Notes under the pieces: model-generated
The model's input: the letters and a program-made list of their open reading frames with translations, nothing else
What the model was told of the DNA's origin: nothing
The model's database searches: none
Program-made: the position numbers and the translations under genes
Shown here: one piece after another, positions 1 to 13,740 of the stretch
How the letters are laid out: each line of letters starts with the position of its first letter
Numbering within the stretch: position 1 is the stretch's first letter
Origin: a virus
Lineage: Duplodnaviria > Heunggongvirae > Uroviricota > Caudoviricetes
Length of the DNA: 13,740 nt
Virus record (IMG/VR): IMGVR_UViG_2695420746_000009
Span: 1 to 13,740 of that record
Reading direction: 5' to 3' (one strand)

Positions 1-84
1 ATCACGGTAATGATTAACAGCCCATGACAGGCAGACGATGATGCAGATAATCAGAGCGGAGATAATCGCGGTTAACCTGCTCAT
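1..84 (-). CDS. Rz: i-spanin Rz, N-terminal 28 codons only (gene runs off the window start)
   Basis: Reverse strand from 84 reads [28 protein letters not shown], near-identical to my recollection of the lambda Rz N-terminus (single TM anchor). Its ATG overlaps the endolysin stop (ATGA). Confidence 0.85.
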
Positions 85-581
85 TGCTGCCCCCACAAAC
101 AGACTTCACGCTCAATATCACGACGGGTCATCAGCCCTTTCCATTGCTTACCGCCAGCGTATGTCCAGCGACGTAGCTGGTCACATGCGCCTTTGATATA
201 GCCCTGGTTTATTTTGCGAAGAAGCGTCGATGTTCTGAAATTGCCAGCACCCACGTTGTAGACGAACGAGTAAAGAGCGCCGCGCGTTGTTTCCGGTATA
301 TCGACTTTGATGTACGGGTTAATTTGTCTGGCGACCGTGGCAAGGTCTTTATTCAGGAGGGCTTTGCATTCTGCTTCGGTATACGTTTTACCTAGCATGA
401 TGTCTTTTCCAGTGTGTCCGTAACATACAGTCCATACGCCAACAATATCTTTGTATGGTATGTAACTGACACCTTCCAGACCATCGTTACCACTTGGGCC
501 AGTGATGAGCATAGACGCTATGGCAATAGCCCCGCCACCAATAGCAGCTGTGACAGCTTTGCGTAATGATGACTGCATCAT
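81..581 (-). CDS. SAR endolysin (phage lysozyme, GH24, P21 R-like)
   Basis: 166 aa. N-terminal Gly/Ala-rich weakly hydrophobic segment [20 protein letters not shown] typical of a signal-anchor-release domain, followed by a T4-lysozyme-like catalytic region ([24 protein letters not shown]). Near-identical to my recollection of P21 R. Tandem ATG ATG start overlaps the holin stop. Confidence 0.9.
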
Positions 582-850
582 ATTTCCTTCGGTGCTCTCT
601 TCCCCAGCTCTCCAATAACCATCGCTGTAGCAGAAAGATTATTGGTATTAGTTTTATCCAATATGTCCTGCAATATCTTCGTGCGCTTCATCTGCTCGCG
701 TTTATTGAGCCGGTATGTAAGCACACCGAGGATAATGCTGAACGCGACACCGATAATGAAGCCCCAATCCTGCAATGACAGGCTGGCAAAGAACGCAGCA
801 AGACCAGCGCTACCATAAGATGCACTGCTGTATCGTTCATCCATCTTCAT
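578..850 (-). CDS. class II holin / pinholin with dual-start motif (holin and antiholin)
   Basis: 90 aa with two hydrophobic segments ([11 protein letters not shown] and [18 protein letters not shown]) and a charged C-terminus. Starts Met-Lys-Met (ATG AAG ATG), the classic dual-start arrangement. SD GAGGT lies 7 nt upstream. Sits immediately upstream of, and overlapping, the SAR endolysin. Confidence 0.75.
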
Positions 851-945
851 ATCTCTTACCTCGCAATAGTTGCTGAGGTTTCGGCTTGGAAACTATATGG
901 CGAAAATAACCCCTACCAAAAACGGCAGGGGAATATATTCTCCAG

Positions 946-2022
946 TTACTCAAATAACTTTTTCACTTCATCAACTGTCTGAAGATAACGTTCGCTCTCA
1001 ATCTCAATACCTATTGCCTGACGTCCTAACTTCAGCGCAGCTTTAATAGTTGAGCCTGATCCCATAAAGAAATCGGCAACGATATCTCCGGGGCGTGAAC
1101 TACTCTTTATAATATGTTCCATCATCGCTGCAGGTTTTTCACATGGGTGCTTGCCAGGATAATATTGCACAGGAGGAAACTCCCATACATCGGTATAAGG
1201 TACATCAGCAGTAACATGAAATGGACGGCGTAAATTTTCATACTGAGTCTTCAAATCATCATACTGCTTCTTTACTTCCTCATAATGCAATTTCAGATCG
1301 CTATAACGCTTTTCATGTTCTGAATAATCAACATTAAAAGGATATGGACACGGGACACCGAGTGAATCTGCCTTCCTGCGAAATAATTCGCATAGTTTAT
1401 TAAAATCAATTAATGATGGAAGCCGCCACTGCGAATAAGAAAACCAGTGTGAACACATCTGCTTTCCTGTCGCTGAATTAATGTCTGCGGCTGATATATC
1501 TAACTGACGGCGAGCCAGCGAAAAAGCATCAATTAGTGGAGAAAATATATTTTTTCTTAAATCTGCACATTTTGAAGCATAACCTGACTGACCTTTAGCA
1601 TAACCTGACGCGCCGTAATGCTCTGCAAATAATATTCTTTCAGTAGCAGGAAAATAAGCCCTTAAACTTTCTTTATGACAACCGCGCCACATACCACTGG
1701 GTTTAGCCCAAATGATATGGTTCAGAACATTGAAACGGTCGCGAGTTAATAATTCAATTTTTGACGCAAGGCGAGAGCCGGTAAACATATACAGGCTGCC
1801 ATTAGGGGCCAATATCCGCCAAAATTCTGCCAAAAATTCGTCAATCCACCCCAAAAAGTCAGCATCGCTATCCCACTGGTTATCCCATGCGTTAGCCTTT
1901 ACGCCGAAGTATGGTGGGTCTGTTGCAATCAAATTGACCGAGTTATCAGGGATGGTTTTGATAAATTGCAGAGAATCTGCGCAAACGAGTTGTGCGCCAT
2001 GAATATTAGTGGTTTTGAACAT
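946..2022 (-). CDS. DNA N6-adenine methyltransferase, beta class (orphan, phage late-region moron)
   Basis: Motif IV DPPY near the N-terminus (LIATDPPYFG) and motif I FxGxG near the C-terminus (DFFMGSGST), i.e. the beta-class order. A coiled-coil-like insert (KRYSDLKLHYEEVKKQYDDLKTQYENLRR) lies in the presumed target-recognition region. Start chosen at the ATG giving MFKTTNIHG; the ORF track extends to 2067. Neither start has a clear SD. Confidence 0.85.
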   Translation of the reverse strand: MFKTTNIHGAQLVCADSLQFIKTIPDNSVNLIATDPPYFGVKANAWDNQWDSDADFLGWIDEFLAEFWRILAPNGSLYMFTGSRLASKIELLTRDRFNVLNHIIWAKPSGMWRGCHKESLRAYFPATERILFAEHYGASGYAKGQSGYASKCADLRKNIFSPLIDAFSLARRQLDISAADINSATGKQMCSHWFSYSQWRLPSLIDFNKLCELFRRKADSLGVPCPYPFNVDYSEHEKRYSDLKLHYEEVKKQYDDLKTQYENLRRPFHVTADVPYTDVWEFPPVQYYPGKHPCEKPAAMMEHIIKSSSRPGDIVADFFMGSGSTIKAALKLGRQAIGIEIESERYLQTVDEVKKLFE

Positions 2023-2157
2023 AGCTATTATTTTTTTGCCTGGGTAAGCTAACCCAGCGATGCGCATCGCGGGTGGGCTTTAGGTTCAGCCTATAGCTCT
2101 GGCATGGGTTGACCGCAGGACAAGCTGCAACTTGTCCTGCGCCCACTTTTCAGGCAC

Positions 2158-2179
2158 AAAAAAACCGCCATAAAGGCGG
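2158..2179 (-). terminator. Intrinsic terminator for leftward transcription (GC hairpin plus U7)
   Basis: Plus strand CCGCC-ATAAA-GGCGG (2165-2179) preceded by a run of 7 A (2158-2164). On the minus strand this is a 5-bp all-GC stem followed by UUUUUUU. Confidence 0.6.
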
Positions 2180-2218
2180 CTTGTTGGCTATTGGGTACAA
2201 AAAACCCAACTTAACAAA

Positions 2219-2247
2219 ACAATAACTAAAAACCGTCATTTTGCCAA
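2219..2247 (-). promoter_or_regulatory. Candidate sigma70 promoter firing leftward into the terminator and late genes (pR'-like by position)
   Basis: Minus-strand TTGGCA (rc of 2242-2247), 17-nt spacer, TATTGT (rc of 2219-2224). The terminator lies about 30-55 nt downstream. No other promoter-like sequence is visible before the methyltransferase start. Confidence 0.35.
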
Positions 2248-2264
2248 GCTTTTTCGTTTTTGTG

Positions 2265-2286
2265 CTGTGCGACCATGGTCGCACAG
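2265..2286. repeat. Perfect 22-bp palindrome CTGTGCGACCATGGTCGCACAG; copy 1 of dispersed TGCGACC-NN-GGTCGCA motif (candidate centromere-like site)
   Basis: Read directly. Intergenic, about 20 bp upstream of the candidate late promoter -35. Same core as the copies at 6573-6590 and 9017-9034. Confidence 0.5.
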
Positions 2287-2289
2287 TTT

Positions 2290-2517
2290 TTAGAAAGTTG
2301 CCTGCTTATATTCATCGGTCAAAGAATATCGACCAGACCCACTACGCTTTGCAACCCCAAAACAGATCATCTGTTCGATGATAAATTCAACGGCAGCCTG
2401 ACTCAAAAAACAGGCTTCGCTTAACTCTTTCAAGGAAATGCGTGGATATCCACGCATAACACATTCCACACTCAGGGCCGCTTCGGTCATATTTCCACGA
2501 ATTTCATTAATATTCAT
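2290..2517 (-). CDS. Hypothetical small protein with probable winged-helix/HTH segment
   Basis: 75 aa. SD GAGAGG 4-5 nt upstream of the ATG. Helix-turn-helix-like stretch ISLKELSEACFLSQAAVEFIIEQM followed by a Gly-rich wing-like segment. Second gene of a two-gene minus-strand operon, ending at the terminator. Confidence 0.55.
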   Translation of the reverse strand: MNINEIRGNMTEAALSVECVMRGYPRISLKELSEACFLSQAAVEFIIEQMICFGVAKRSGSGRYSLTDEYKQATF

Positions 2518-2530
2518 AACGCCTCTCTAA

Positions 2531-2752
2531 TCAATCTTGAAACTGGAAATCAACATCAGCCATAAAGCGGTTCAACTCAGCCAGTTTTGGCCCCATAGTC
2601 CCAATTAAGCGGCCAGCCAGTCGGTCTGTCAGGTTGGTACTGTTGAAACCATATTCCTTTTCGAAACGTTCAACCTTCTGCCACAACTCATACAATTCGT
2701 TAGCTATCTCCGCAACGTCGCCGCGCATTTTTTCGTTACCTTGATAATTCAT
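2531..2752 (-). CDS. Hypothetical small acidic protein
   Basis: 73 aa from the internal ATG (MNYQGNEK...), which has SD GAGGA 4 nt upstream. The ORF-track start at 2770 has no usable SD. Gap of 13 nt to the downstream HTH gene. Confidence 0.5.
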   Translation of the reverse strand: MNYQGNEKMRGDVAEIANELYELWQKVERFEKEYGFNSTNLTDRLAGRLIGTMGPKLAELNRFMADVDFQFQD

Positions 2753-2839
2753 AATATCCTCGAAATTCATATAGTTAGTGGGTTATCCCCCTCAACAACA
2801 CGAACTGTAACTCTGCCAAAAGAACACATCCAGTGTTAT

Positions 2840-2857
2840 TTTCACTTTTTAGTGAAA
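2840..2857. promoter_or_regulatory. Inverted repeat TTTCAC-N6-GTGAAA in the divergent promoter region (candidate operator for TA autoregulation)
   Basis: Read directly, about 60 bp upstream of the toxin start, between two divergent transcription units. Confidence 0.4.
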
Positions 2858-2915
2858 TTTTATATTTGCTTTGTTTTCTCGTTTTGGTGTATTTTGCGCG
2901 TTAGGAGGCTATAAT

Positions 2916-3227
2916 ATGTTTAACGTGATAACCCACCCTGCAGCACTGGATGAACTGCTTGAACTACCAGACGATCTGCGAGGTCGCATGACCAGGCTAA
3001 TTGAACGACTGGAGAAAGAGGGAAACAAACTTAAGATGCCCCATAGCCGTGTAATAGGCGGAGGACTCTTTGAACTAAGAGTAGGGGATAAAAACATCGC
3101 AAGAACGCTATACGCCTACGCGACTGGTAACGAAATTTATCTATTGCATGCATTTGTAAAAAAGACACAGAAAACACCAGTAAAGGCTATAGAAATCGCC
3201 AGAACTCGCCTGAAGGAGATGAACTGA
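2916..3227 (+). CDS. Type II toxin, RelE/ParE superfamily, HigB/Gp49-like (addiction module killer protein)
   Basis: 103 aa from the ATG with SD AGGAGG 7 nt upstream. Family-typical motifs LFELR, LLHAF and KKTQKTP. Stop overlaps the start of the downstream HTH gene by 1 nt. The ORF-track start at 2871 is over-extended. Confidence 0.8.
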   Translation: MFNVITHPAALDELLELPDDLRGRMTRLIERLEKEGNKLKMPHSRVIGGGLFELRVGDKNIARTLYAYATGNEIYLLHAFVKKTQKTPVKAIEIARTRLKEMN

Positions 3228-3514
3228 TGAAAGCAAAAGGCATCCCGTTTAACGAAGTAAAGGAAAAACTACTCAACACTCCAGAAGCTATCAAAGGATA
3301 TGAAGAGGCCGATAAAGAACTGGAGATGGTCGAAATGTTATACGAAATGAGGGAAAGAGCAGGTTTAACGAAGTCAGCTCTGGCAGAACGAATGGGATTG
3401 CGCCCGTCCGCCATCAGCCGCCTGGAAAGCAATCCTTTAGGGGCAAGCATGAAAACTTTATCAAAATATGCCCAAGCATGTGGCGCAACAATTAATATTA
3501 ATGCCGTCTATTGA
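3227..3514 (+). CDS. HTH (XRE-family) antitoxin, HigA-like antidote protein
   Basis: 95 aa. Classic HTH LTKSALAERMGLRPSAISRLE. Translationally coupled to the upstream toxin in toxin-first (HigBA-type) order. Confidence 0.8.
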   Translation: MKAKGIPFNEVKEKLLNTPEAIKGYEEADKELEMVEMLYEMRERAGLTKSALAERMGLRPSAISRLESNPLGASMKTLSKYAQACGATININAVY

Positions 3515-3531
3515 TTAATCACTTTTCACTA

Positions 3532-3551
3532 CCCCGTCCAGAAGGGCGGGG
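3532..3551. terminator. Hairpin between convergent genes (possible bidirectional terminator)
   Basis: CCCCGTCC-AGAA-GGGCGGGG, an 8-bp stem with one G-U pair. Lies between the antitoxin stop (3514) and the stop of the convergent ORF (3558). Flanking U-tracts are poor. Confidence 0.4.
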
Positions 3552-3557
3552 TGTGTA

Positions 3558-3776
3558 TCAATGATGTAAACACTCCACAGCAATCGCTTGTTGGCAATTC
3601 TGAGCAATCTCCCGCGACATACTAACAAGCCGTGAAATCTCGCCAAGATGCAAGCTAGCTTCGGGAGAAGCCAGAGCAACGCTAACCAGATCCAAAACGG
3701 CGTCGATGTCTTTTAGGTTTGATCCGAGTTCTTCAAGAGTTGATACAGATGCTTCAGTCATTGAATCTAATACCAT
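3558..3776 (-). CDS. Hypothetical small acidic protein; candidate LexA-regulated gene
   Basis: 72 aa, rich in D/E. No recognisable SD in front of the ATG. A consensus-like LexA box lies 23 nt upstream. Coding status uncertain. Confidence 0.4.
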   Translation of the reverse strand: MVLDSMTEASVSTLEELGSNLKDIDAVLDLVSVALASPEASLHLGEISRLVSMSREIAQNCQQAIAVECLHH

Positions 3777-3798
3777 TTAATTAAAAAAGGTTATTTGA

Positions 3799-3818
3799 TA
3801 CTGTATAAAATTACAGGG
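3799..3818. promoter_or_regulatory. Candidate LexA (SOS) box
   Basis: TACTGTATAAAATTACAGGG: CTGT-N8-ACAG with an AT-rich spacer, 16 of 20 matches to TACTGTATATATATACAGTA. Overlaps a possible -10 (TACAGT on the minus strand) for the 3558-3776 ORF. It is the only CTGT-N8-ACAG found in the intergenic regions inspected. Confidence 0.55.
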
Positions 3819-4017
3819 TAAAACTCAAATTTTATAGCCAACTTTCAATGGATTAACAGGGTTAATAGCTTTGTAGTCCGATACTTATGTTCTCTTCCTA
3901 CGCCTCACTCAACCACCTACAGAAGCCCATCATCACCATAAGAAAAACTCTTTTCGCTTCGTTTTCTCATCATTTCAAAAACTATGCCTTTTTGTTTATT
4001 TATCATTCCGTGACCAG

Positions 4018-4344
4018 TCACACTTTGAGCACAAGTTTCAGCCTCGTAGTTGTAAGGTGACATGAGCCTTCACCATCAAAAATACATTCTGAAACAGGCA
4101 TTTTCTGACCACATCGCGGGCAAGTAGTAGATAGCTGCTTCTGCAGCTCCTTATAGTTTTTCCTGATCAGCAGACCGATGACTTCATTCTCTGAATATGG
4201 AACTCGTCCCGGTCTACGCAATACACAAATTTCCCCCAACATACGTAGCTCGTCAGGTTCCAGAATCCAGTCCCGTCTTGATGTGCCTTCCTTCTTCAAC
4301 CGTTCCCTGCGTCTCCTTTGCCGTTCTGCAGCTGTCAGCGCCAT
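4018..4344 (-). CDS. Hypothetical protein with arginine-rich N-terminus and C-terminal Cys cluster
   Basis: 108 aa. SD AGGAGG 4 nt upstream. N-terminus AERQRRRRERLKK; Cys cluster CPRCG...C...C. Last gene of the minus-strand operon. Confidence 0.6.
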   Translation of the reverse strand: MALTAAERQRRRRERLKKEGTSRRDWILEPDELRMLGEICVLRRPGRVPYSENEVIGLLIRKNYKELQKQLSTTCPRCGQKMPVSECIFDGEGSCHLTTTRLKLVLKV

Positions 4345-4359
4345 AAATCCTCCTGAAAA

Positions 4360-5034
4360 TTACTTAACCCAATTAACTACACCGCCAGCGGCCACAACCG
4401 CTTTTTCACAGTCACGCTCATATCTCAAAGGTTGAAATACACCATCAATAAAATATTTATCTCCACCACATGCTGCAGGAAGTGAAACAGAAAACTGAAT
4501 ATGACCATCCGGAGTTACCGGAGAGTTGCCAGCCTCATACGCTACCCTTATCCAGTGCATAAGCATTTCTGTACTTACACATCCACAATCAACATCAATT
4601 TTGTCATGCTGCTGTTCCAGCCATTGCTCAAAAGTTAACTTGTAAGTTTGGCTTATAGGTTTGGCTTCCAGTTCTGCTATGTGATTTTTGGCTGATTCCA
4701 ACTCAATCGACAATTTTTCCAACTGCTCTTTATGCTTCTTGTATTCCTGATATGCGTGCCAAGACTGACCTTTGCGCACACTATCCGTGATATCAGTAAT
4801 CTGTTCTGGTGTTAGCGTGGTCAGTGGCTGTGCTGGGAAAATCAGCACTTTCCCGGAATCCCAATCAAAACCAGCGTGAATTGACTGAACCTCAACTGAA
4901 GGTGTTGAACCAATGCTGCCAGGCGAATGAACAACGATCGTTACATCCATATCGCGACGATCGCTGTGGTTGTTGGACAAAATACGATTCAACAAAATAC
5001 GATTCACCAACTCAGAAAATTTAGAAAATTTCAT
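4360..5034 (-). CDS. Hypothetical protein with central coiled-coil
   Basis: 224 aa. ATG overlaps the upstream gene stop (ATGA). Coiled-coil-like region KKHKEQLEKLSIELESAKNHIAELEAK. Contains an in-frame 15-bp tandem duplication near the 5' end. Confidence 0.65.
   Translation of the reverse strand: MKFSKFSELVNRILLNRILSNNHSDRRDMDVTIVVHSPGSIGSTPSVEVQSIHAGFDWDSGKVLIFPAQPLTTLTPEQITDITDSVRKGQSWHAYQEYKKHKEQLEKLSIELESAKNHIAELEAKPISQTYKLTFEQWLEQQHDKIDVDCGCVSTEMLMHWIRVAYEAGNSPVTPDGHIQFSVSLPAACGGDKYFIDGVFQPLRYERDCEKAVVAAGGVVNWVK
4977..5006. repeat. Perfect tandem duplication of 15 bp (ACAAAATACGATTCA x2), in frame inside CDS 4360-5034
   Basis: Read directly. Encodes the repeated NRIL(L/S) unit in the N-terminus. 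Confidence 0.8.
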
Positions 5035-5321
5035 GCTGATTCACCTTTCTCTGCTCTCTCCTGTCGGAACATCACTATCATCAGGTCGCCTTTTGTCGCT
5101 ATCTTGGCTGTTGTGCCTGGCTCAATGCGGCTAAGTTCAAATGCGTCATAGAACGCCTCCAACGCTTTCTGGCGTTTTTCCTGTTTGCGGCGCTTTCCCC
5201 ACTGCTTTAGAAAAACAGAGGCCGCCCACTTCCCCGCACTGAACATGATGTAAAACCAACCGAGAAGTGCCAGACCGGTATTTAGGGCCGTATCGATCGT
5301 TATCGTGGTGTCGATATTCAC
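5031..5321 (-). CDS. Small membrane protein (one predicted TM segment), GTG start
   Basis: 96 aa from GTG at 5321, which is preceded by SD AGGAGG at 7-nt spacing and overlaps the upstream stop (TAGTG). TM-like segment GLALLGWFYIMFSAGKWAASVFL followed by a basic stretch. The ORF-track start at 5399 would overlap the upstream gene by 79 nt. Confidence 0.55.
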   Translation of the reverse strand: MNIDTTITIDTALNTGLALLGWFYIMFSAGKWAASVFLKQWGKRRKQEKRQKALEAFYDAFELSRIEPGTTAKIATKGDLMIVMFRQERAEKGESA

Positions 5322-5740
5322 TACGCCACCTCCTGAAAATTTCCCTGATAAAACGCCAACACACGCTGCATAACTTCGCTCTTCCGACAATCGTGACAAA
5401 TCATGTTCAAGCGCCTGTCGTAACGACGTATTTCTCCATCAGGTAATGACCAGATAAGGTCAGGATCAACAACTACCGATTTCTTCGGCTTTACTCTTGA
5501 TAGCTTTTTGCGGGCGTTTTGCCAGTCCTTGCGCGCTTGTGCAGACAGAAATATCCCGGAGCCAGAGATATACAAATCACCACTGGTGGCAAGCTCTCTG
5601 GATAAACGATTAACAGCACATCGGCTAATACTAATTTCATCTGCCAGTTGCCTAACCGTTCCTCGCCCATTCAGGCGCACGAGTTCCACAATTTGTTTCT
5701 TCAGTTCTTCACGCTGTTCTGGTGTAAAAACTTTTGCCAT
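5321..5740 (-). CDS. HTH-containing DNA-binding protein, function unknown
   Basis: 139 aa. SD GGAGA 6 nt upstream. ATG overlaps the exonuclease stop (TAATG). HTH-like stretch VRQLADEISISRCAVNRLSREL. Confidence 0.7.
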   Translation of the reverse strand: MAKVFTPEQREELKKQIVELVRLNGRGTVRQLADEISISRCAVNRLSRELATSGDLYISGSGIFLSAQARKDWQNARKKLSRVKPKKSVVVDPDLIWSLPDGEIRRYDRRLNMICHDCRKSEVMQRVLAFYQGNFQEVA

Positions 5741-6339
5741 TACGATTCTCCTTTCCCTTTTATGAGACGGGAGAAAATTGCGGATACATACTTAGCCTGA
5801 TGAATAGCATCAGCTAGGGCATGGTGTCGTTCGCCATCAAATGGCATATCTTTTTTAGAATTGAAACCAATAAACTGACCAAGATTAACGATTGTTCGAA
5901 CATCCTGATCATTAAAATATTCCCACGGACAGGCTAAGCCAACGCGCTCATAAGCACCGCGTAAAATTACATTGTCGAATGTTGCTCCATTTCCCCATAC
6001 TTTCAATTTTTTTAAATTACATGCATGGCAAGTAATAAAGTGTGATAATTCAAAAAGTGCATCCTTAATATCAAGGGCATCATTAGTACAAATTGCGGCT
6101 CTGGCTTCCTTGCTCTGTTTCAACCACCATAAAATGGTATCACCATCGGCGACACCACCATTCAACATCGAGCTTCTGAGATTCACTGGCACATAAAAAG
6201 TAGGACCTAATTCCTCACTTTCTGGAGAAAAAAACACTGCCCCGATAGAAACAATTGGAGCACATGTGTTAGTACCCATTGTTTCAAGGTCAATCATTAC
6301 ATCAGACCGTTTCCTGTCGTAAATAATCTGATTAGTCAC
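5740..6339 (-). CDS. DEDDh-family 3'-5' exonuclease (DnaQ-like fold)
   Basis: 199 aa. Exo I motif MIDLETMG (D-x-E), Exo II GNGATFDNVIL, Exo III HHALADAIHQAKY (H-x4-D with Tyr). GTG start with SD GAGGAG 8 nt upstream. Confidence 0.75.
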   Translation of the reverse strand: MTNQIIYDRKRSDVMIDLETMGTNTCAPIVSIGAVFFSPESEELGPTFYVPVNLRSSMLNGGVADGDTILWWLKQSKEARAAICTNDALDIKDALFELSHFITCHACNLKKLKVWGNGATFDNVILRGAYERVGLACPWEYFNDQDVRTIVNLGQFIGFNSKKDMPFDGERHHALADAIHQAKYVSAIFSRLIKGKGES

Positions 6340-6362
6340 GAATAATTCTCCTCAACGTTTAT

Positions 6363-6566
6363 CTATACCCAAATTTTCTGTTGATATGTTCTGGATGGTT
6401 TTGGCGTTCTTTCTGATTCAGGTAAATGAACATAAACGCAATATCCATCACCTAAAAAATCAGAACGAACAACCAGAACTTTCTTACCACGCCGCCGATA
6501 AGTATCTGAAAGACGCTCTGCTTCATCATGCGTCATCGGCCCCTGCTTAAATGGCGTTATTTTCAT
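6363..6566 (-). CDS. Hypothetical small basic protein
   Basis: 67 aa from the ATG (MKITPFKQ...). The 18-bp palindrome lies 6 nt upstream of the start; no clear SD. The ORF-track start at 6590 is a GTG inside the palindrome. Confidence 0.5.
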   Translation of the reverse strand: MKITPFKQGPMTHDEAERLSDTYRRRGKKVLVVRSDFLGDGYCVYVHLPESERTPKPSRTYQQKIWV

Positions 6567-6867
6567 TTTCTTGTGCGACCGCGGTCGCACCCTCGCTGAT
6601 TTCCAAGTAACGCTTAATCCAAAGATTTTCTATATGCTTATTACCTGGCTGATTTGATAAATACCAATCGGCAATTACAGACTGCTTATTACTATCTGGT
6701 CGTGTCCTGTAACCACAAGTTGGACACCAGATAACATATTCATTTCTTACCCCCGAATACCTTAATTCTGGCTTCGACGGTTTCCTGAACATAACTTGTT
6801 TACAAAGGCAGAATGGCACTTCCTGCCCGATGGCGTTTGATGATTTCACTGCGCTTCTCCGCCGCAT
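6547..6867 (-). CDS. Hypothetical protein with Cys pairs (CxC ... CPxCG), possible zinc ribbon
   Basis: 106 aa as given in the ORF track; start uncertain (no SD at either candidate ATG, and it overlaps the upstream gene by 68 nt if full length). Cys pattern CLC ... CPTCG. Confidence 0.4.
   Translation of the reverse strand: MRRRSAVKSSNAIGQEVPFCLCKQVMFRKPSKPELRYSGVRNEYVIWCPTCGYRTRPDSNKQSVIADWYLSNQPGNKHIENLWIKRYLEISEGATAVAQENENNAI
6573..6590. repeat. Perfect 18-bp palindrome GTGCGACCGCGGTCGCAC; copy 2 of TGCGACC-NN-GGTCGCA motif
   Basis: Read directly. Lies within the 3' end of ORF 6547-6867 (encoding ATAVAQ) and immediately upstream of the start of the 6363-6566 gene. Confidence 0.5.
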
Positions 6868-7510
6868 TTAATAATGCGGTTCGATTTAAGCTCAGACATC
6901 GCGACTTAATTAAAAGCCAGCGTTCTTTATAATCTTGTCTCCAGCTATCAATAGATATATTCAGTAGAAAACTCAGATGCCTGTCCTGTTCTCTCTCATC
7001 AACTGCCTCAGCACACGTAAGTTCTGATTTAACCTGCTGTGCCGCGTAATAAATCAATTTCCGCATGGCTTTTTTCGTGGAGGCCTTCATTTTTTTAAAG
7101 CCGCCCCCAGAATGAGCAACCAGAAAATCAAGCCATAACCACTGACAAACAATCACATCATTGTTGTAGTCAGGCTTGCATCCGTAGCAATAATAAAGCC
7201 AGGCTGATTCCTCGTTATTCAACTGACCAATAGCCCTGCGCCAGCTGGCGCTCTGAAAATCAATATCAGTGAGCAACATTGATGATTGTTTAAATGTTTT
7301 CCCTTGGTGGAATCTAACCGACTCAGCGGGAACGGACACTTCGTATGAGTTATCATCCCCCACACTGATTGACCGGACTGGTTTATTGTTAAACCGTCCT
7401 GATCTACCGAGACGCATCTGCTCAAGCTGGACCTCCAGAATGCCACGCTGGCGATAATGAACATCAGCCAATGCCGTAGAGACGCAGCTGCGTATATACT
7501 CAAGCTCCAC
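6800..7510 (-). CDS. Hypothetical protein; positional candidate for a late-gene antiterminator (Q-like), unverified
   Basis: 236 aa. GTG start with SD AGGAGA at 9-nt spacing, overlapping the cro-like stop by 11 nt. First gene after the cro-like gene. I cannot confirm Q-family membership by eye. Confidence 0.55.
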   Translation of the reverse strand: MELEYIRSCVSTALADVHYRQRGILEVQLEQMRLGRSGRFNNKPVRSISVGDDNSYEVSVPAESVRFHQGKTFKQSSMLLTDIDFQSASWRRAIGQLNNEESAWLYYCYGCKPDYNNDVIVCQWLWLDFLVAHSGGGFKKMKASTKKAMRKLIYYAAQQVKSELTCAEAVDEREQDRHLSFLLNISIDSWRQDYKERWLLIKSRCLSLNRTALLNAAEKRSEIIKRHRAGSAILPL

Positions 7511-7721
7511 GCTTACGACTCTCCTTAATCGACTGCTTTACCCGCCGAGTTGTAAAGTCACTCTTCAGCTTGTAAGCAGTACGAACTTCAATATCGCTTT
7601 GCCGCAATGAAGGAATCTCTCCAGCGGTTAACCATTGGTAAACAGCTCCGGGTGTTACACCTACCCCTGCCGCTGCTTTTTCAACACTGCCAAAGTGGCG
7701 AATAAGTTCTTCTGGTTTCAT
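7500..7721 (-). CDS. Cro-like HTH regulator
   Basis: 73 aa from the ATG giving MKPEELIRHF. HTH VGVTPGAVYQWLTAGEIP resembles the lambda Cro GVYQSAINKAI region. Divergent from the CI-like gene across an operator-bearing intergenic region. TATAAT lies 7 nt upstream of the ATG, so the mRNA may be leaderless. Confidence 0.7.
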   Translation of the reverse strand: MKPEELIRHFGSVEKAAAGVGVTPGAVYQWLTAGEIPSLRQSDIEVRTAYKLKSDFTTRRVKQSIKESRKRGA

Positions 7722-7749
7722 GTTGTTATTATAAACAATAAATAACAAT

Positions 7750-7789
7750 TAAAGCCAGCTATAATAAATAAATTTTATAGCCAGCTATA
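7750..7789. promoter_or_regulatory. Two operator-like 14-bp sites (TAAAGCCAGCTATA and TATAGCCAGCTATA) between the divergent cro-like and cI-like genes
   Basis: The 12-mer AGCCAGCTATAA occurs twice, 26 bp apart. The second site is a near-perfect dyad (TATAGC-CA-GCTATA). The location is the expected OR-like switch region. Confidence 0.5.
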
Positions 7790-7812
7790 AGAAGATCATT
7801 TATGATTACAGT

Positions 7813-8409
7813 ATGAAAACACGAGGCGAACGACTGAAAGCACGCCGTTTAGAGATGAAGCTGACGTTGCGAGAAGTTGCTGAGGCTGTCGATATCTCTA
7901 TAGCAGGCGTCCAAAACTTAGAACGTGGCGACGTAATGCCGTCACTGGAGATAGGTATTGCCCTGGCTAAGTGCTTACGCAAGCCAGTGCATTGGGTGCT
8001 ATATGGGACAGAATATGACCCTGATCGCATTCCTGTTATTGGCACAACTGAAAGTGGGCCTGATGAAGAGTGGAAGCCGGGACAGGTTCCAAATACTGAG
8101 CGATTCCTGCCATTCATCAGCCAGCGCAATACTGTGTATGCGTTAACTATCAGCAATCTTACGCAGGGAAACTATCAGCCAGGCGATTTTCTCCTGGTCG
8201 ATTCTGCGCTGGAACTGGTCCCCGGCGAGGATGTTCTGGTTCGTGATACTGCAGGAAATATCACTATCCAGCGCCTAGCCCGTTTTGATGATGAAAATTA
8301 CTATCTGGATGGAACAAACTCACAACGCGCCATCTTCAGGAAAAGCGATCTTGAATTTGTTCACCAAATAGTCGGAACGATCAAATCATTCATGGTTGAG
8401 GGTAGATGA
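7813..8409 (+). CDS. CI-like prophage repressor (N-terminal XRE HTH, C-terminal CI/LexA-like domain)
   Basis: 198 aa. HTH LTLREVAEAVDISIAGVQNLERG. C-terminal region resembles lambda CI around PGDF (QPGDFLLVDS ... VGTIKS). I could not locate a canonical G-D-S-M catalytic Ser context by eye, so autocleavage competence is uncertain. Confidence 0.8.
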   Translation: MKTRGERLKARRLEMKLTLREVAEAVDISIAGVQNLERGDVMPSLEIGIALAKCLRKPVHWVLYGTEYDPDRIPVIGTTESGPDEEWKPGQVPNTERFLPFISQRNTVYALTISNLTQGNYQPGDFLLVDSALELVPGEDVLVRDTAGNITIQRLARFDDENYYLDGTNSQRAIFRKSDLEFVHQIVGTIKSFMVEGR

Positions 8410-8510
8410 CTTAATACGGGGTTTATTGTTTGCTGTAAATCTGGTTTAATGCAGGGCATATGTTCTGTGGGTTGACTCAGGTTACAGCAGCAGAAAAAAG
8501 ACGAAAAAAA

Positions 8511-8539
8511 ACCCGAGTCGGCAAACTCGGGTCCTTTTC
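8511..8539. terminator. Bidirectional intrinsic terminator between the cI-like and repA-like genes
   Basis: ACCCGAGT-CGGCAA-ACTCGGGT, an 8-bp stem. The plus-strand U-tract is weak (CCUUUUC); the minus-strand U-tract is strong (UUUUUUUUCGUCUUUUUUC). Confidence 0.5.
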
Positions 8540-8654
8540 AGGAAGCAGCCACAGTAACGCGACGGATTCCGTCAATTCAAGATGCGTTTATTGTGGCTGC
8601 TCCTGCGGATTTTTTCAACCCGAAAAAACATAATTCGCATGGAATGGCTAAAAA

Positions 8655-11600
8655 ATGACATTAAACGATTTCTATGCGGATCGCTTTGGCAGCGATCCGT
8701 TCTCGCTAATTGAAGCAGCACGGGATGAACTAACCGAGCTGGCACAGATGGCTGGTATCAACTGGCCTGCCTGTTCCGACAACATCCAACTCAACCCTCG
8801 CGGGGGAGTTGAGCGTTACTCTTCATACAATAAAACATCTCCAGAAGCTCTCGAAAAGAGCCTGAAAGGACGCGTAGAAATTTACTCCCGGCTGGAACAC
8901 AGCAAAGGGATTGATTACCCGTTCATTAACTTCGTCCATAAAGGCAGCGATGCTGGCTCATGGAGCGGTTTCTCCTTCCTGTTTTCTGAATATCGCCGTG
9001 AGCAACAACGGAATAATGCGACCGTGGTCGCACAACCGGAAGAAGAACGGGAAAGAATAGAACGTCAGGCCGAAGCACGTCGTCGCCGTGAAGAACAAAA
9101 ACGAATTAATGACCTGAAAAACAACCAAATGGACCATGAACGTTTGCTGGGATGGCTGGCATTCCACAGCGCGTGGGAACATGCTCCGGCTGAAGACGGC
9201 TCATGGCCATATGCGATTAAAAAAGGTATTCGTGACGTTTTTAGTTCATGTGATGTGCGTCGCGTGACCAGTCACGACAGTGCGAAATGGAGCCGGGGGC
9301 CAACCACATATATGGCTATCCCTCTGGCTCACCTGGACGGTCGTTACGATGGTCGTATTGTGGGTTGGCAGCGAATCGACAAACAAGGTGGGAAATACCA
9401 GACCAGCGCAGTAACCAGCGGCGATTTCGTCGGTGCCTGCTTTGTTATCGGTGAGCTGAAAGGGGCGCAAAACATCGCTGTTACAGAAGGTTTTGCTACT
9501 GGTGCATCCATCTGGCTTGCCACGAAAAAAGATAAACGCTTTGACGCTGTGGTTGTCGCTGTATCCGCTAACAACATGGTTCATGTTGTGGAACAACTGG
9601 TAAACATGTACCCAGCGGCAAAAATCACCTGCGCACTGGATAATGACCGGAAATCTGCCACAGAAGGAAAAGGGAATACCGGCCTGCGGACTGGCTATGA
9701 AATCTTATCGAAATTCAACGATGTCCGCTGCGTCTATCCAACTTTTGAAGACGATCCGCAAATGGAGTGCAGTGACTTCAACGACCTGCACAAACTACGT
9801 GGACTTCGTGAAACCGCACGTCAACTATTTACAACAGCAAACCGCCTGAAAACCGGTACTGATTTGCTATCTCTGACGCTCAACCGCCTGAAGACAATTA
9901 AGCGGGATAACCGTCGTACTTTTGCCAAAGAGCTGCTGAGAGCGGTGGATATTGGCATGCTAACCTGTCCAGTTCCTAACAGTCCGTCAGATTTATTTAA
10001 CATGTTCTGCATCGTTCTGCGTGAAATGGGACTGGAAAATATCTATCGCGCTACGGTAAAAGACCACATTGCCCGTCGCCTGAATAAAAAGTGCCGTATT
10101 GCCCAGGCTCCGCGCTCTTTCAGCGAACGCATAACTGATCCCAATAAACGCCCTCAACATATCACCTATAAGCGTTTTGAAACTTCGGTAATGACCGATG
10201 ATGTCCTGAAGTACGTGCAATCACTACAAGGGATAGTCATCGTCCGTGCTGGTATGGGTTCCGGCAAATCTACAGGATTGTTACGACCATTAATGCATAG
10301 CTCAGAACGTGGTATCTCTGTTGCTCACCGTGTCTCCCTTATTGGTGGCCTGTGGGAAATGATGACAGAAGGAAAAGGTGTAAAAGCCGATATCCTGCAC
10401 TATCAGGACCCTGGCTATCAGGAAATGGCTCCATACGCCAGTAAACTGACCATCTGCATAAACTCGATTGTCAAAAACTGCTGGCAACCGTTGATGCGCC
10501 AGCACGACTATTTTGGCTTTGACGAGGCCACACAAGGGCTACGTGCCGTTCTTTCCGGTCGGGCTATGGAAAACCCGGTGGCTGTATTCAATACGCTAAT
10601 TGACGCGCTGGCCAGAACGGAACAACACCCAATCATGGTGGATGCTGATGCGAACGATCTGCTGGTTGACCTAGCTGAACTGGCTATGAAACGCCGTGAA
10701 GAACTAGGTTTACCGGCATGGCTGCAGATCCACGTAATTGAATTACCTGTTGATGTTCGCAACCGCGAAACAGGTGAGCCAATCCGGGTTTTTTATACAG
10801 AAAAAGATCGCATCATGACCGAGGTGGTGAAAGCTGTATCGGATGGCGAAAAAATCATGTTGGCCACCGACAGCTCCACCTTTGCAGAAGATGTGACAGC
10901 CACCCTGAGAATGCATTTTCCTGGTAAGAAATTTCTGTGTGTAAACCAGAAAAACAAACCAGAGCCAGAAGTTGAAGCATTTACCAATCAACCGAAAAAG
11001 ATGGTCAAAAAATACGACGGCCTGATTTATAGCCCGTCTATTTCATCCGGCGTGTCGATTGAGCAAAAACATTTTGACCGTCATTTCGGCATGTTCTGTG
11101 GTGAAGTTGTACCCAGCGACGCAGTGCAAATGCTACGCCGCGACCGTACAGCAAAAGAATTTATTATCGGCTTTGATAAAGCTCGTGCAAAACGTGAAAC
11201 TGACCCGCAAAAAATAGAACGAGCATTCGCCCAGGCATTGCTTGCTACCGCAGGTATGAACGGTGAACTGACGGATGTTGTTTTCGATGGCGACCGTATA
11301 TCAATGGGGGTGGCCAATACCGACTTTACCAGGATGAAAATTAAAGCAGCCGCAATTGAAGCGACTGCGCGTAACGACTACGCCAGCAACATGATCTGCA
11401 TCATGCACAGCGACGGTTATAAGGTATCGCCGCTGGCCACCGATTATGCTGCGAATGATATCGGTAAAGATCTGCGTAAAGAAGCGCGGGATATTGTGTG
11501 GGAACAGACACTGGATCTGCACCTCAATACAGAAACTCCACAAGAATCAGAGCGTGAAGAACTGCTAAAAAAACGCGCGCTGACGCTTGAAGAACAGGCA

Positions 11601-12698
11601 AAACTTGTCCGCTGGGATATTGAAAACGAACTGAAACTACCGGTTGAAGAAGGCACGCTGAAATTCTATTTCGATGGTGCTCGAGACAAAGTTCGCCGCT
11701 ATGAAACAATGCTTTTAGATGAGGTAACAGCTCGTCGTTACGACCGGGAAGAAGCAGCCATCAATTTTACCTACGCATACCGTCAGGCGGGACAGTGGCA
11801 ATATTTTGTAGTGACCGCGATGACTCGCGAGCAGGCTGATGATGTCTTTAAAACTAAATTCCCTGGAATAATCGATCACAAGGTAAAAGCTACTCCTACT
11901 GTTGAAGTCGGGGCGCGCGGTTTCTATGCGCTTAAATCAGCAACTCTCCGGCAGTACTTTATCGACTGCGGTATCAACCCTGAGACTATGACCGGCGAGG
12001 CGACTCAGGAGCGTCTCAAATTTGCTCGAGATAACCTCATGACAGCCGAACGCCGTGACCTGTTGAATAACGTTCTGCACATTGGTGGTTTTATGACGCC
12101 AAAAGGGAAGCCTAAAGTGCCGGAAGCGTTGTTTAAAAACATTTGCGACTCTCTTGGCCTTAAAACAGGTAAACGTCGCGGCAGAGACGGCGATAAGCGT
12201 CCAACCTTGCGTTTTGTTGAGCCTGAATCAGCGGCATTTATGCTGGATATTCTTGCTCAGCGTCAGAAAGATGGCCTAACCCTGAAAACGCGTAAAGCCG
12301 AGAAGACCGCCATCGAAATGGATCGCGATTTGGATCTCAATATATATATGGATGATAAAACGCGATCCACAAACGAGCAGGTTCAAAACGCCCCTCATTC
12401 AGTAATTTCTGAGGCTTTGGCTGTGTTGCCAGTGGTTGTACCTGAGTCCTGGGCGATGAGTGCGCTTTCCGGTGAGGAGCTGGCCACTATGTCATCATGG
12501 TCATCAGCCAGCATAGCTATGACGTTTGCATCTCTGTACCTCACAGAGTTCATGGATCACTTATCCAGCAATGAACTGCGGCGGTTACGTGAATACATTA
12601 CCGGGAATAGCTGGATTTGCCCCTATATTTCCAGACATCTGTTATCACTTAACCCATTACAAGCCCGCTGCCGCAGATATTCCCGTGGCGAGCGATAA
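8655..12698 (+). CDS. Large multidomain replication initiator (primase-helicase, N15 RepA-like); 3' end disrupted by IS2
   Basis: 1347 codons as an ORF. Toprim-like motifs ([12 protein letters not shown] and CALDNDR) around aa 280-330, Walker A GMGSGKST around aa 535, Walker B-like FGFDEAT, then a roughly 700-aa C-terminal region. Native sequence ends at 12611 (1319 codons); codons 1320-1347 are read from the IS2 terminal inverted repeat. Weak SD. Confidence 0.8.
9017..9034. repeat. Palindrome TGCGACC-GT-GGTCGCA; copy 3 of the motif, inside the repA-like coding sequence
   Basis: Read directly. Encodes ATVVAQ in a charged linker ([21 protein letters not shown]), in the same codon phase as copy 2 (ATAVAQ). 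Confidence 0.5.
12320..12368. other. Candidate origin-like element inside the 3' part of the repA-like gene
   Basis: 8-bp inverted repeats GGATCGCG / CGCGATCC flank ATTTGGATCTCAATATATATATGGATGATAAAA, which includes an (AT)5 run and three GATC sites within 49 bp. Confidence 0.3.
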
Positions 12699-13528
12699 CC
12701 CAGCGCACTATGCGGATGCCATTCGTTATAATGCTCGAACGCCTCTGCAAGGTTCTTTGCTGCCGTTAACCCGTCTGGTTTGGGCATGATACTGATGTAG
12801 TCACGCTTTATCGTTTTCACGAAGCTCTCTGCTATTCCGTTACTCTCCGGACTCCGCACCGCCGTGTTCTTCGGTTCAAGTCCCAACATCCGGGCGAACT
12901 GGCGTGTTTCATTAGCCCGGTAGCATGAACCATTATCCGTCAGCCACTCCACTGGAGACGACGGAAGATCGTTGCCGAAGCGGCGTTCCACCGCTCCCAG
13001 CATGACGTCCTGTACTGTTTCACTGTTGAAGCCGCCGGTAGTCACCGCCCAGTGCAGTGCCTCACGATCACAGCAGTCCAGCGCGAACGTGACACGCAGT
13101 CTCTCTCCGTTATCACAGCAGAACTCGAACCCGTCAGAGCACCATCGCTGATTGCTTTCTTTCACGGCCACTCTGCCTGTATGTGCCCGTTTCGATGGCG
13201 GTACAGCAGGTTTTCGCTCAAGCAACAGCGCATTCTGGCGCATGATCCGGTAAACACGTTTGGCATTGATCGCAGGCATACCATCAAGTTCTGCCTGTCT
13301 GCGAAGCAGCGCCCATACCCGACGATAACCATACGTGGGCAGCTCTCCGATAACATGGTGTATACGGAGAAGCACATCCGTATCATCAGTGTGACGACTG
13401 CGGCGGCCATCCATCCAGTCATCGGTTCGTCTGAGAATGACGTGCAACTGCGCACGCGACACCCGGAGACAACGGCTGACTAAGCTTACTCCCCATCCCC
13501 GGGCAATAAGGGCGCGTGCGCTATCCAC
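12623..13528 (-). CDS. insD: IS2 transposase OrfB (InsD), normally expressed as an OrfAB fusion by -1 frameshift
   Basis: 301 aa beginning [23 protein letters not shown] and ending SDNRCLEI, matching IS2 InsD from memory. DDE-type integrase core. Confidence 0.9.
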
Positions 13529-13740
13529 TTTTTTGCCCGTCCATATTCAACGGCTTCTTTGAGGAGTTCATTTTCCATCGTTTTCTTGCCGAGCAGGCGC
13601 TGGAGTTCTTTAATCTGCTTCATGGCGGCAGCAAGTTCAGAGGCAGGAACAACCTGTTCTCCGGCGGCGACAGCAGTAAGACTTCCTTCCTGGTATTGCT
13701 TACGCCAGAGAAATAACTGGCTGGCTGCTACACCATGTTG
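13486..13740 (-). CDS. insC: IS2 OrfA (InsC), C-terminal part (5' end beyond the window)
   Basis: Reverse strand reads ...[20 protein letters not shown] ... [24 protein letters not shown], then a stop. Overlaps the insD start region, which contains the slippery AAAAAAG. Confidence 0.85.

Follow-up and report, generated by a model that had tools for sequence, protein, structure and literature searches.

Organization of the Locus

The window analyzed here spans the entire 13.7 kb draft contig CXCD01000107.1 of assembly GCA_001260475.1 (13,740 nucleotides, IMG/VR record IMGVR_UViG_2695420746_000009), and it carries a single plus-strand open reading frame for 1347 amino acids that begins at position 8655. 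To the left of this frame Q and cro point leftward, followed by a rightward series of the repressor gene cB, OL-type operators, a hairpin, and the frame itself, repA; the order is the same in phage N15. An earlier note, made from the sequence alone, had described a protein of more than 1300 amino acids with a Toprim primase region, Walker A and B motifs, and a long C-terminal region, lying directly downstream of a same-strand CI-like gene and a weak plus-strand terminator. Each of these elements can be placed: the motifs are all located in the translation, the CI-like gene encodes an HTH_3 protein closely related to N15 CB, and the weak terminator corresponds to the first of two leader hairpins (Table 1). 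The note ended the gene at 12611; homology to intact repA extends to this base and no farther, and the stop codon comes later, at 12696-12698.

The frame is very probably the repA gene of an N15-like (Ravinvirus-type) linear phage-plasmid of Escherichia coli, with a candidate internal origin of replication (ori), control by the CB repressor, and an insertion of the IS3-family element IS2 at its 3' end. Intact repA in relatives is 3996 nucleotides long and encodes 1331 amino acids. The 1347-residue gene call is a fusion of repA to IS2 and not a natural variant.

Table 1. Positions of the features discussed, with the basis for each assignment
Feature	Position	Strand	Basis and remarks
Open reading frame, repA::IS2 fusion	8655..12698	+	ATG start; 1347 amino acids; single reading frame
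Native part of repA	8655..12611	+	Covers 1319 codons, of 1331 in intact repA; homology to N15 gp37, PHROG 4913, DNA of relatives
Primase region	9012..9845	+	Amino acids 120-397; PHROG primase families, Toprim similarity to P4 alpha, motifs
NTPase/helicase domain, UL9-like	10227..11756	+	Amino acids 525-1034; CyRepA1, Herpes_ori_bp, motifs
RepA C-terminal region	11757..12611	+	Amino acids 1035-1319; candidate ori encoded within
Candidate internal origin	12300..12404		TGGATC at 12319-12324 (+), 12331-12336 (+), and 12364-12369 (-) around an AT-rich spacer
sopC-like centromere palindrome inside repA	9017..9032		TGCGACC-GT-GGTCGCA; unchanged in six N15-like repA genes
cB prophage repressor	7813..8409	+	HTH_3; 78% identical to N15 CB
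Putative OL-type operators (two)	8423..8461		TTATTGTTTGCTGTAA (8423-8438) and TTAATGCAGGGCATAT (8446-8461); TA-N10-TA at the position of the N15 CB operators
Putative OR-type operators	7749-7764, 7775-7790		Between cro and cB; the second is identical to an N15 site
IS2, 1129 of 1331 bp	12612..13740	-	Right inverted repeat adjoins repA; orfB at 12623-13528; orfA cut by the contig end
IS2-encoded read-through tail	12612..12698	+	28 codons and a stop; replaces the native last 12 residues, PCSYEEQGAFYG
Leader hairpin 1	8504..8539		Eight A, G+C-rich stem, then TCCTTTTC; unchanged in six phages
Leader hairpin 2	8540..8604	+	Followed by GCGGATTTTTT
Putative countertranscript unit	8497..8618	-	Promoter-like TTGAAA-17-CACAAT at 8618-8590; predicted start near 8583; terminator at 8539-8504 plus T-run; RNA of about 85 nucleotides
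Centromere palindrome, copy 2	6574..6589		TGCGACC-GC-GGTCGCA, upstream of Q; exact copy at the equivalent place in N15
Centromere palindrome, copy 3	2268..2283		TGCGACC-AT-GGTCGCA

Relationship to N15 and Other Telomere Phages

RepA is 75% identical to N15 RepA (gp37) across amino acids 1-1316, and the N15-type RepA family, PHROG 4913 (annotated "replication"), matches the same residues with 2022 bits. The length that the earlier note gave for N15 RepA was right: that protein does have 1324 residues. Searches with tblastn give identities of 75.7% for phiKO2 RepA, 49% for PY54, 30% for VP882, and 28% for phiHAP-1. The full-length relatives in the phage collection (PhiR46_1, YDC107_1, the Klebsiella N15-like phages, phiKO2, N15, PY54, VP882, and phiHAP-1) are telomere phages without exception. 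The homology check proposed in the note thus returns N15, phiKO2, and PY54 RepA as relatives over their full length, and P4 alpha over a Toprim segment only.

At the DNA level, the 3957 nucleotides of 8655-12611 are 98-99.8% identical to repA of about 33 plasmids of roughly 46 kb from E. coli, Shigella, and E. fergusonii, and to repA of the linear phage PhiR46_1. One of these plasmids, NZ_LR883007.1, has a repA that is 99.8% identical and is colinear with window positions 1-12611 at 98.7% identity; it encodes a protelomerase at 19705-21192. PhiR46_1 is linear and has an annotated telL end. These relatives support the N15-like phage-plasmid signature that the note had read into the locus. They have colinear flanks and an intact repA without the IS2 junction. 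The gene was found in 17 of the 5,426 complete E. coli genomes, at 22 places, all of them on plasmids and none chromosomal. RefSeq names the protein "plasmid replication protein, CyRepA1 family."

The rest of the contig is in keeping with a phage: it carries genes for lysozyme, holin, the Q antiterminator, and a P22-type Cro. The lambda O and P families are missing from the 19 genes called, as the note had stated, and the other signs it had named as contrary, best homologues among integrative-element primases and attachment-site ends, did not turn up either.

The likeness to N15 extends beyond the protein, which falls in the same length class (1324 versus 1331 native residues) and has the same Toprim and P-loop motifs. 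Both genes lie behind cB, OL operators, and a terminator, and both contain a centromere palindrome toward the 5' end and a cluster of TGGATC repeats toward the 3' end. The two differ in the operator interiors and in a leader segment of about 40 nucleotides, so that immunity or incompatibility specificity may differ; in addition, megablast detects DNA identity between the repA genes over the first 1.1 kb only, and N15 lacks the 3' IS2 of this copy. PY54, phiKO2, VP882, and phiHAP-1 likewise have full-length RepA homologues behind a repressor gene, with divergent sequences.

Domains of RepA

Reading the translation locates the signature motifs of both catalytic regions. The Toprim glutamate motif TEGFATGAS occupies amino acids 277-285 (nucleotides 9483-9509) and the DxD motif ALDNDRKS amino acids 327-334 (9633-9656); the EGFATGAS and DND cores are unchanged in N15, PY54, VP882, and phiHAP-1. 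PHROG primase families match amino acids 106-397 with an E-value of 9e-35. Farther along are a P-loop (Walker A) motif, AGMGSGKST, at amino acids 532-540 (10248-10274) and a Walker B motif, FGFDEAT, at amino acids 620-626 (10512-10532).

The second catalytic region resembles the helicase of herpesvirus UL9. The NCBIfam model CyRepA1 (NF042913) matches amino acids 525-1034 with 259.4 bits, passing its curated cutoff of 200, and Pfam Herpes_ori_bp (PF02399) matches amino acids 522-674 with 25.2 bits against a cutoff of 20. A search of solved structures gives a marginal alignment to the herpesvirus origin-binding protein chains 9hgj and 9hgi (PDB phmmer E 0.22). UL9 and the cyanobacterial CyRepA1 plasmid Rep proteins resemble RepA in the helicase/NTPase core, whereas both are without a primase domain, and the similarity to UL9 is weak and covers only about 150 residues. 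The C-terminal 285 native amino acids return zero family matches in a Pfam search, and a single-sequence structure model of them is unusable, with a predicted local distance difference test score (pLDDT) of 45.

An alternative is that RepA is a primase-helicase of the P4 alpha kind, belonging to an integrative satellite or island and without a plasmid role. In its favor, RepA and P4 alpha share a Toprim segment (26% identity, about 110 amino acids, E 1e-5). P4 alpha is, like RepA, a single multifunctional initiator polypeptide that combines primase, helicase, and ori binding. However, RepA does not have the zinc ribbon, D5_N, DUF5906, and Pox_D5 domains of P4 alpha. The helicases are of different types, D5 (SF3) in P4 alpha and UL9/CyRepA1 in RepA, and P4 alpha has its ori and crr outside the gene, whereas the candidate ori of RepA lies inside. 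Moreover, chromosomal copies number zero in the 5,426 complete E. coli genomes, and apart from the IS2 transposase the contig encodes no integrase. This alternative has a negligible probability. Membership in the P4 alpha family itself is rejected: the zinc ribbon, D5_N/SF3 helicase, and Pox_D5 models all match P4 alpha and none matches RepA, for which only Toprim_3 appears, below its cutoff.

Candidate Origin and Centromere Palindromes in and around repA

A codon-aligned scan of synonymous sites across six N15-like repA genes peaks at 12300-12404. Identity there is 0.83, the mean for the gene being 0.48 (z 3.05), and 21 of 2000 permutations of the columns attain this value. This interval contains an inverted repeat (12319-12331 and 12357-12369) and coincides with three repeat_regions annotated in the N15 repA record U63085. 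PY54 has the same layout at this position with other arm sequences; its origin reportedly measures 212 bp, in work by Ziegelin and colleagues from 2005. GATC is scarce in the window, with 36 sites against 51 expected and at least 36 in every shuffle, yet three sites fall within 47 bp at the candidate ori. Elsewhere on the contig, the product of a minus-strand gene (946-2067) is a DNA methyltransferase of the N6_N4 type, which the PhiR46_1 annotation calls DNA adenine methylase.

In N15, RepA primes replication, initiation takes place inside repA, and one centromere also lies inside repA (PMC2847241). A conserved candidate ori in the 3' part of the present gene fits the published site of initiation. 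For circular replication, repA alone is reported to be enough in N15 and PY54 (PMC10612081, citing Ziegelin 2005 and Mardanov & Ravin 2006).

The palindrome TGCGACC-NN-GGTCGCA occurs three times in the window, where chance would give an expectation of 0. At the codons that hold the copy inside repA, PY54 has TGGGACCACGGTCCCA, in which both arms are altered and the palindrome is kept, and phiKO2 is annotated with a putative partitioning site at the same position. The palindromes presumably are dispersed SopB centromeres, as in N15. Two close relatives, NZ_LR883007.1 (L001) and L002, have two further copies just to the left of the region that matches the window. A different palindrome, CGTGAC-CA-GTCACG, lies inside repA at 9263-9276; its synonymous sites are unchanged in the six N15-like genes, PY54 does not have it, and it falls within the strongest peak of the synonymous-site scan apart from the candidate ori (0.73 versus the mean of 0.48).

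Probable Control by the CB Repressor

In N15 and phiKO2, the predicted repA promoter is overlapped by two OL operators to which CB binds, and these operators control copy number (PMC4997575). Binding of CB at OL represses repA and lowers copy number in both phages (PMC4997575, PMC4488713), and PY54 has fewer operators (PMC4488713). The present locus has a CB homologue and two putative OL-type sites in the gap between cB and the leader hairpins. The earlier note had suggested repressor-coupled control of replication, the CI-like gene being separated from repA only by a weak terminator. The coupling stands; in N15 and phiKO2 it works through operator binding and not through read-through of the weak terminator, and the matching sites here argue for the same route.

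IS2 Insertion at the 3' End of repA

Homology to intact repA stops at 12611. The next base, 12612, opens the right end of IS2 (TGGATTTGCCCC), with TGGATTTGCCCCTATATTTCC at the outer end of its right inverted repeat. From the first base of the element onward, the copy is 99.8% identical to the IS2 of U82084, and the NCBIfam IS2 TnpB model matches with 727.6 bits over 301 of 301 positions. The insertion point lies 39 bp before the native repA stop codon and 207 bp downstream of the candidate ori. The contig ends 202 bp short of the left end of IS2. Beyond that end, the second junction is expected to read from the IS2 left end GGGGGCCAGTCTA through the target duplicate ATAGC into CCATGCAGCTACGAAGAGC. 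Genes downstream of repA are cut off from repA transcription by the insertion. What this window adds is the clipping of repA by IS2 and the contig break inside IS2; RepA of the N15 type, like the control that CB exerts on it, is already known, textbook matter for telomere phages, and near-identical copies are present on dozens of sequenced plasmids.

The consequence for RepA is the exchange of its last dozen residues for an IS2-encoded tail. The extreme C-termini (last dozen residues) are unalike among N15, phiKO2, YDC107_1, the Klebsiella phages, and PY54. Because the lost residues vary among relatives and the candidate ori is untouched, the fused RepA is probably still active. The 3' end of PY54 repA is reported, in the 2005 work by Ziegelin and colleagues, to be dispensable for RepA action in trans. 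A different outcome would be that the repA::IS2 allele is dead, so that the contig represents a decaying or non-replicating remnant or an insertion present in a subpopulation only. IS2 does lie inside the coding sequence and separates repA from the genes downstream, the contig stops within it so that the remainder of the element is out of view, and the junction appears in none of the other collections searched. However, the loss is limited to 12 terminal residues that vary among functional relatives, the reading frame stays open, the candidate ori and centromere are intact, and the remaining 12.6 kb are colinear with intact elements. A dead allele is therefore judged unlikely, and an active fused RepA is preferred.

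The join could also be an artifact of assembling short reads across a repeat, the true gene being intact. The whole draft contig ends inside IS2, and IS2 is multi-copy in E. coli, with a median of 3 places per genome. Yet repA gives way to IS2 precisely where the right inverted repeat begins, as real transposition would give, the contig runs on through 1129 bp of the element, and the same contig is on record for two samples. A mis-join is thus quite improbable, and a real insertion is the preferred account of the junction.

Several observations weigh against the assignment of the frame as a whole to repA of an N15-like phage-plasmid with CB control and a 3' IS2. Pfam Toprim_3 matches amino acids 274-383 with 22.4 bits, under its gathering cutoff of 27.2 (E 1.7e-4). 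A consensus scan of 8380-8520 finds no sigma-70-like promoter for repA. Searches of complete E. coli genomes, PLSDB, IMG/VR, and GTDB representatives turned up no further case of the junction between repA and IS2; the source contig is the only record, so that the insertion has no independent confirmation. Finally, telomere, protelomerase, and sopAB are all missing from the window, which is the whole 13.7 kb contig, so that only its near-identical relatives speak for this element being a linear phage-plasmid.

The repA Leader and a Putative Countertranscript

Between the OL-type sites and the start codon, the leader at 8495-8640 is predicted to fold into two tandem hairpins (-58.8 kcal/mol, z -7.2). 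This two-hairpin layout is common to N15, phiKO2, and PY54, and the stem sequence of PY54 is unrelated. The N15 annotation lists hairpin 1 as a terminator, and that of phiKO2 lists it as a putative bidirectional one. The hairpin is a weak terminator on the plus strand and a strong one on the minus strand, the only strand on which a consensus scan calls it. The minus-strand strength follows from the run of eight A before the stem, and both neighboring genes lie on the plus strand.

A minus-strand promoter-like site faces this terminator from within a 46-nucleotide block that is unchanged in six phages. The roughly 40 nucleotides between site and terminator are variable and include 1-nucleotide indels. 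A survey of 55 repA upstream regions, taken from named phages and IMG/VR loci, sorts them into 14 groups without detectable similarity between groups. The unit of minus-strand promoter followed by terminator is found in 10 of the 14, with predicted RNAs of 72-143 nucleotides, against 0.66 of 14 expected from dinucleotide shuffles; the plus-strand mirror arrangement is found in one. The phiHAP-1 leader, used as a prospective test of the unit, passed. As far as sequence comparison can tell, the survey suggests a conserved countertranscript against the repA leader of telomere phages.

The arrangement is like that of R1 CopA, the pT181 and pIP501 RNAs, and ColE1 RNA I, in which the rep leader contains a short antisense unit with a constant promoter and terminator and a variable pairing segment; it differs in that the unit of the telomere phages is predicted from sequence. 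A countertranscript acting on the two-hairpin leader may provide a second control of copy number or incompatibility, independent of the repressor, and the variable 5' segment of about 40 nucleotides may set specificity between co-resident phage-plasmids. Rfam gives nothing at gathering score in the whole window, and sub-threshold matches in the leader reflect hairpin or terminator shape only. A literature search, whose coverage did not extend to the most relevant N15 papers, found no description of an N15 or VP882 repA antisense RNA. That N15-like and other telomere phage-plasmids encode a conserved short countertranscript in the leader of repA, real and also unreported, is a tentative proposal, the odds of both holding together being somewhat against it.

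The leader also overlaps an open reading frame for 57 amino acids at 8460-8633 (plus strand). It is rejected as a gene, having zero family matches and a frame that is broken in relatives by 1-nucleotide indels.

Proposed Mechanism and Significance

Homology with N15 and PY54 RepA suggests that a primase of the Toprim type, an NTPase/helicase resembling UL9, and the recognition of the origin would reside in one polypeptide. As described for relatives, RepA would prime and unwind at the internal ori (near 12300-12404 here), and replication would proceed bidirectionally. TelN would resolve the telomeres, and SopAB would act on dispersed centromeres, one of them in repA, again as in relatives. CB bound at OL (8423-8461) would set plasmid copy number in addition to immunity, and the IS2-fused allele probably would still replicate the element. 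In this scheme homology, motifs, synteny, conserved cis-elements, and the IS2 junction come from the present analysis, whereas the primase, helicase, and origin functions and the control by CB come from the literature on relatives.

Phage-plasmids of this family are used for linear cloning, as the vector pJAZZ, and provide a model for telomeres. For annotation, the analysis makes this contig assignable to an N15-like linear phage-plasmid and gives positions, with a precision of tens of bases, for the candidate origin, the centromere palindromes, and the operators. The antisense unit, if real and unreported, would add RNA-based control of copy number and incompatibility to the phage-plasmid family.

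Neighboring Genes and Relatives

A toxin-antitoxin pair occupies 2916-3514 on the plus strand, the toxin (Gp49/RelE family) coming first and the antitoxin (HTH_3/HTH_31) second. Relatives are annotated alike, and such a pair is typical plasmid-maintenance cargo. In the record of NZ_LR883007.1, which is labeled circular, four proteins (hypothetical, Icd-like, hypothetical, and BRO) are encoded twice in inverted orientation, flanking the protelomerase gene at 16135-17362 and 21666-22893. This inverted repeat could be a real duplication or an effect of assembly across a hairpin telomere.

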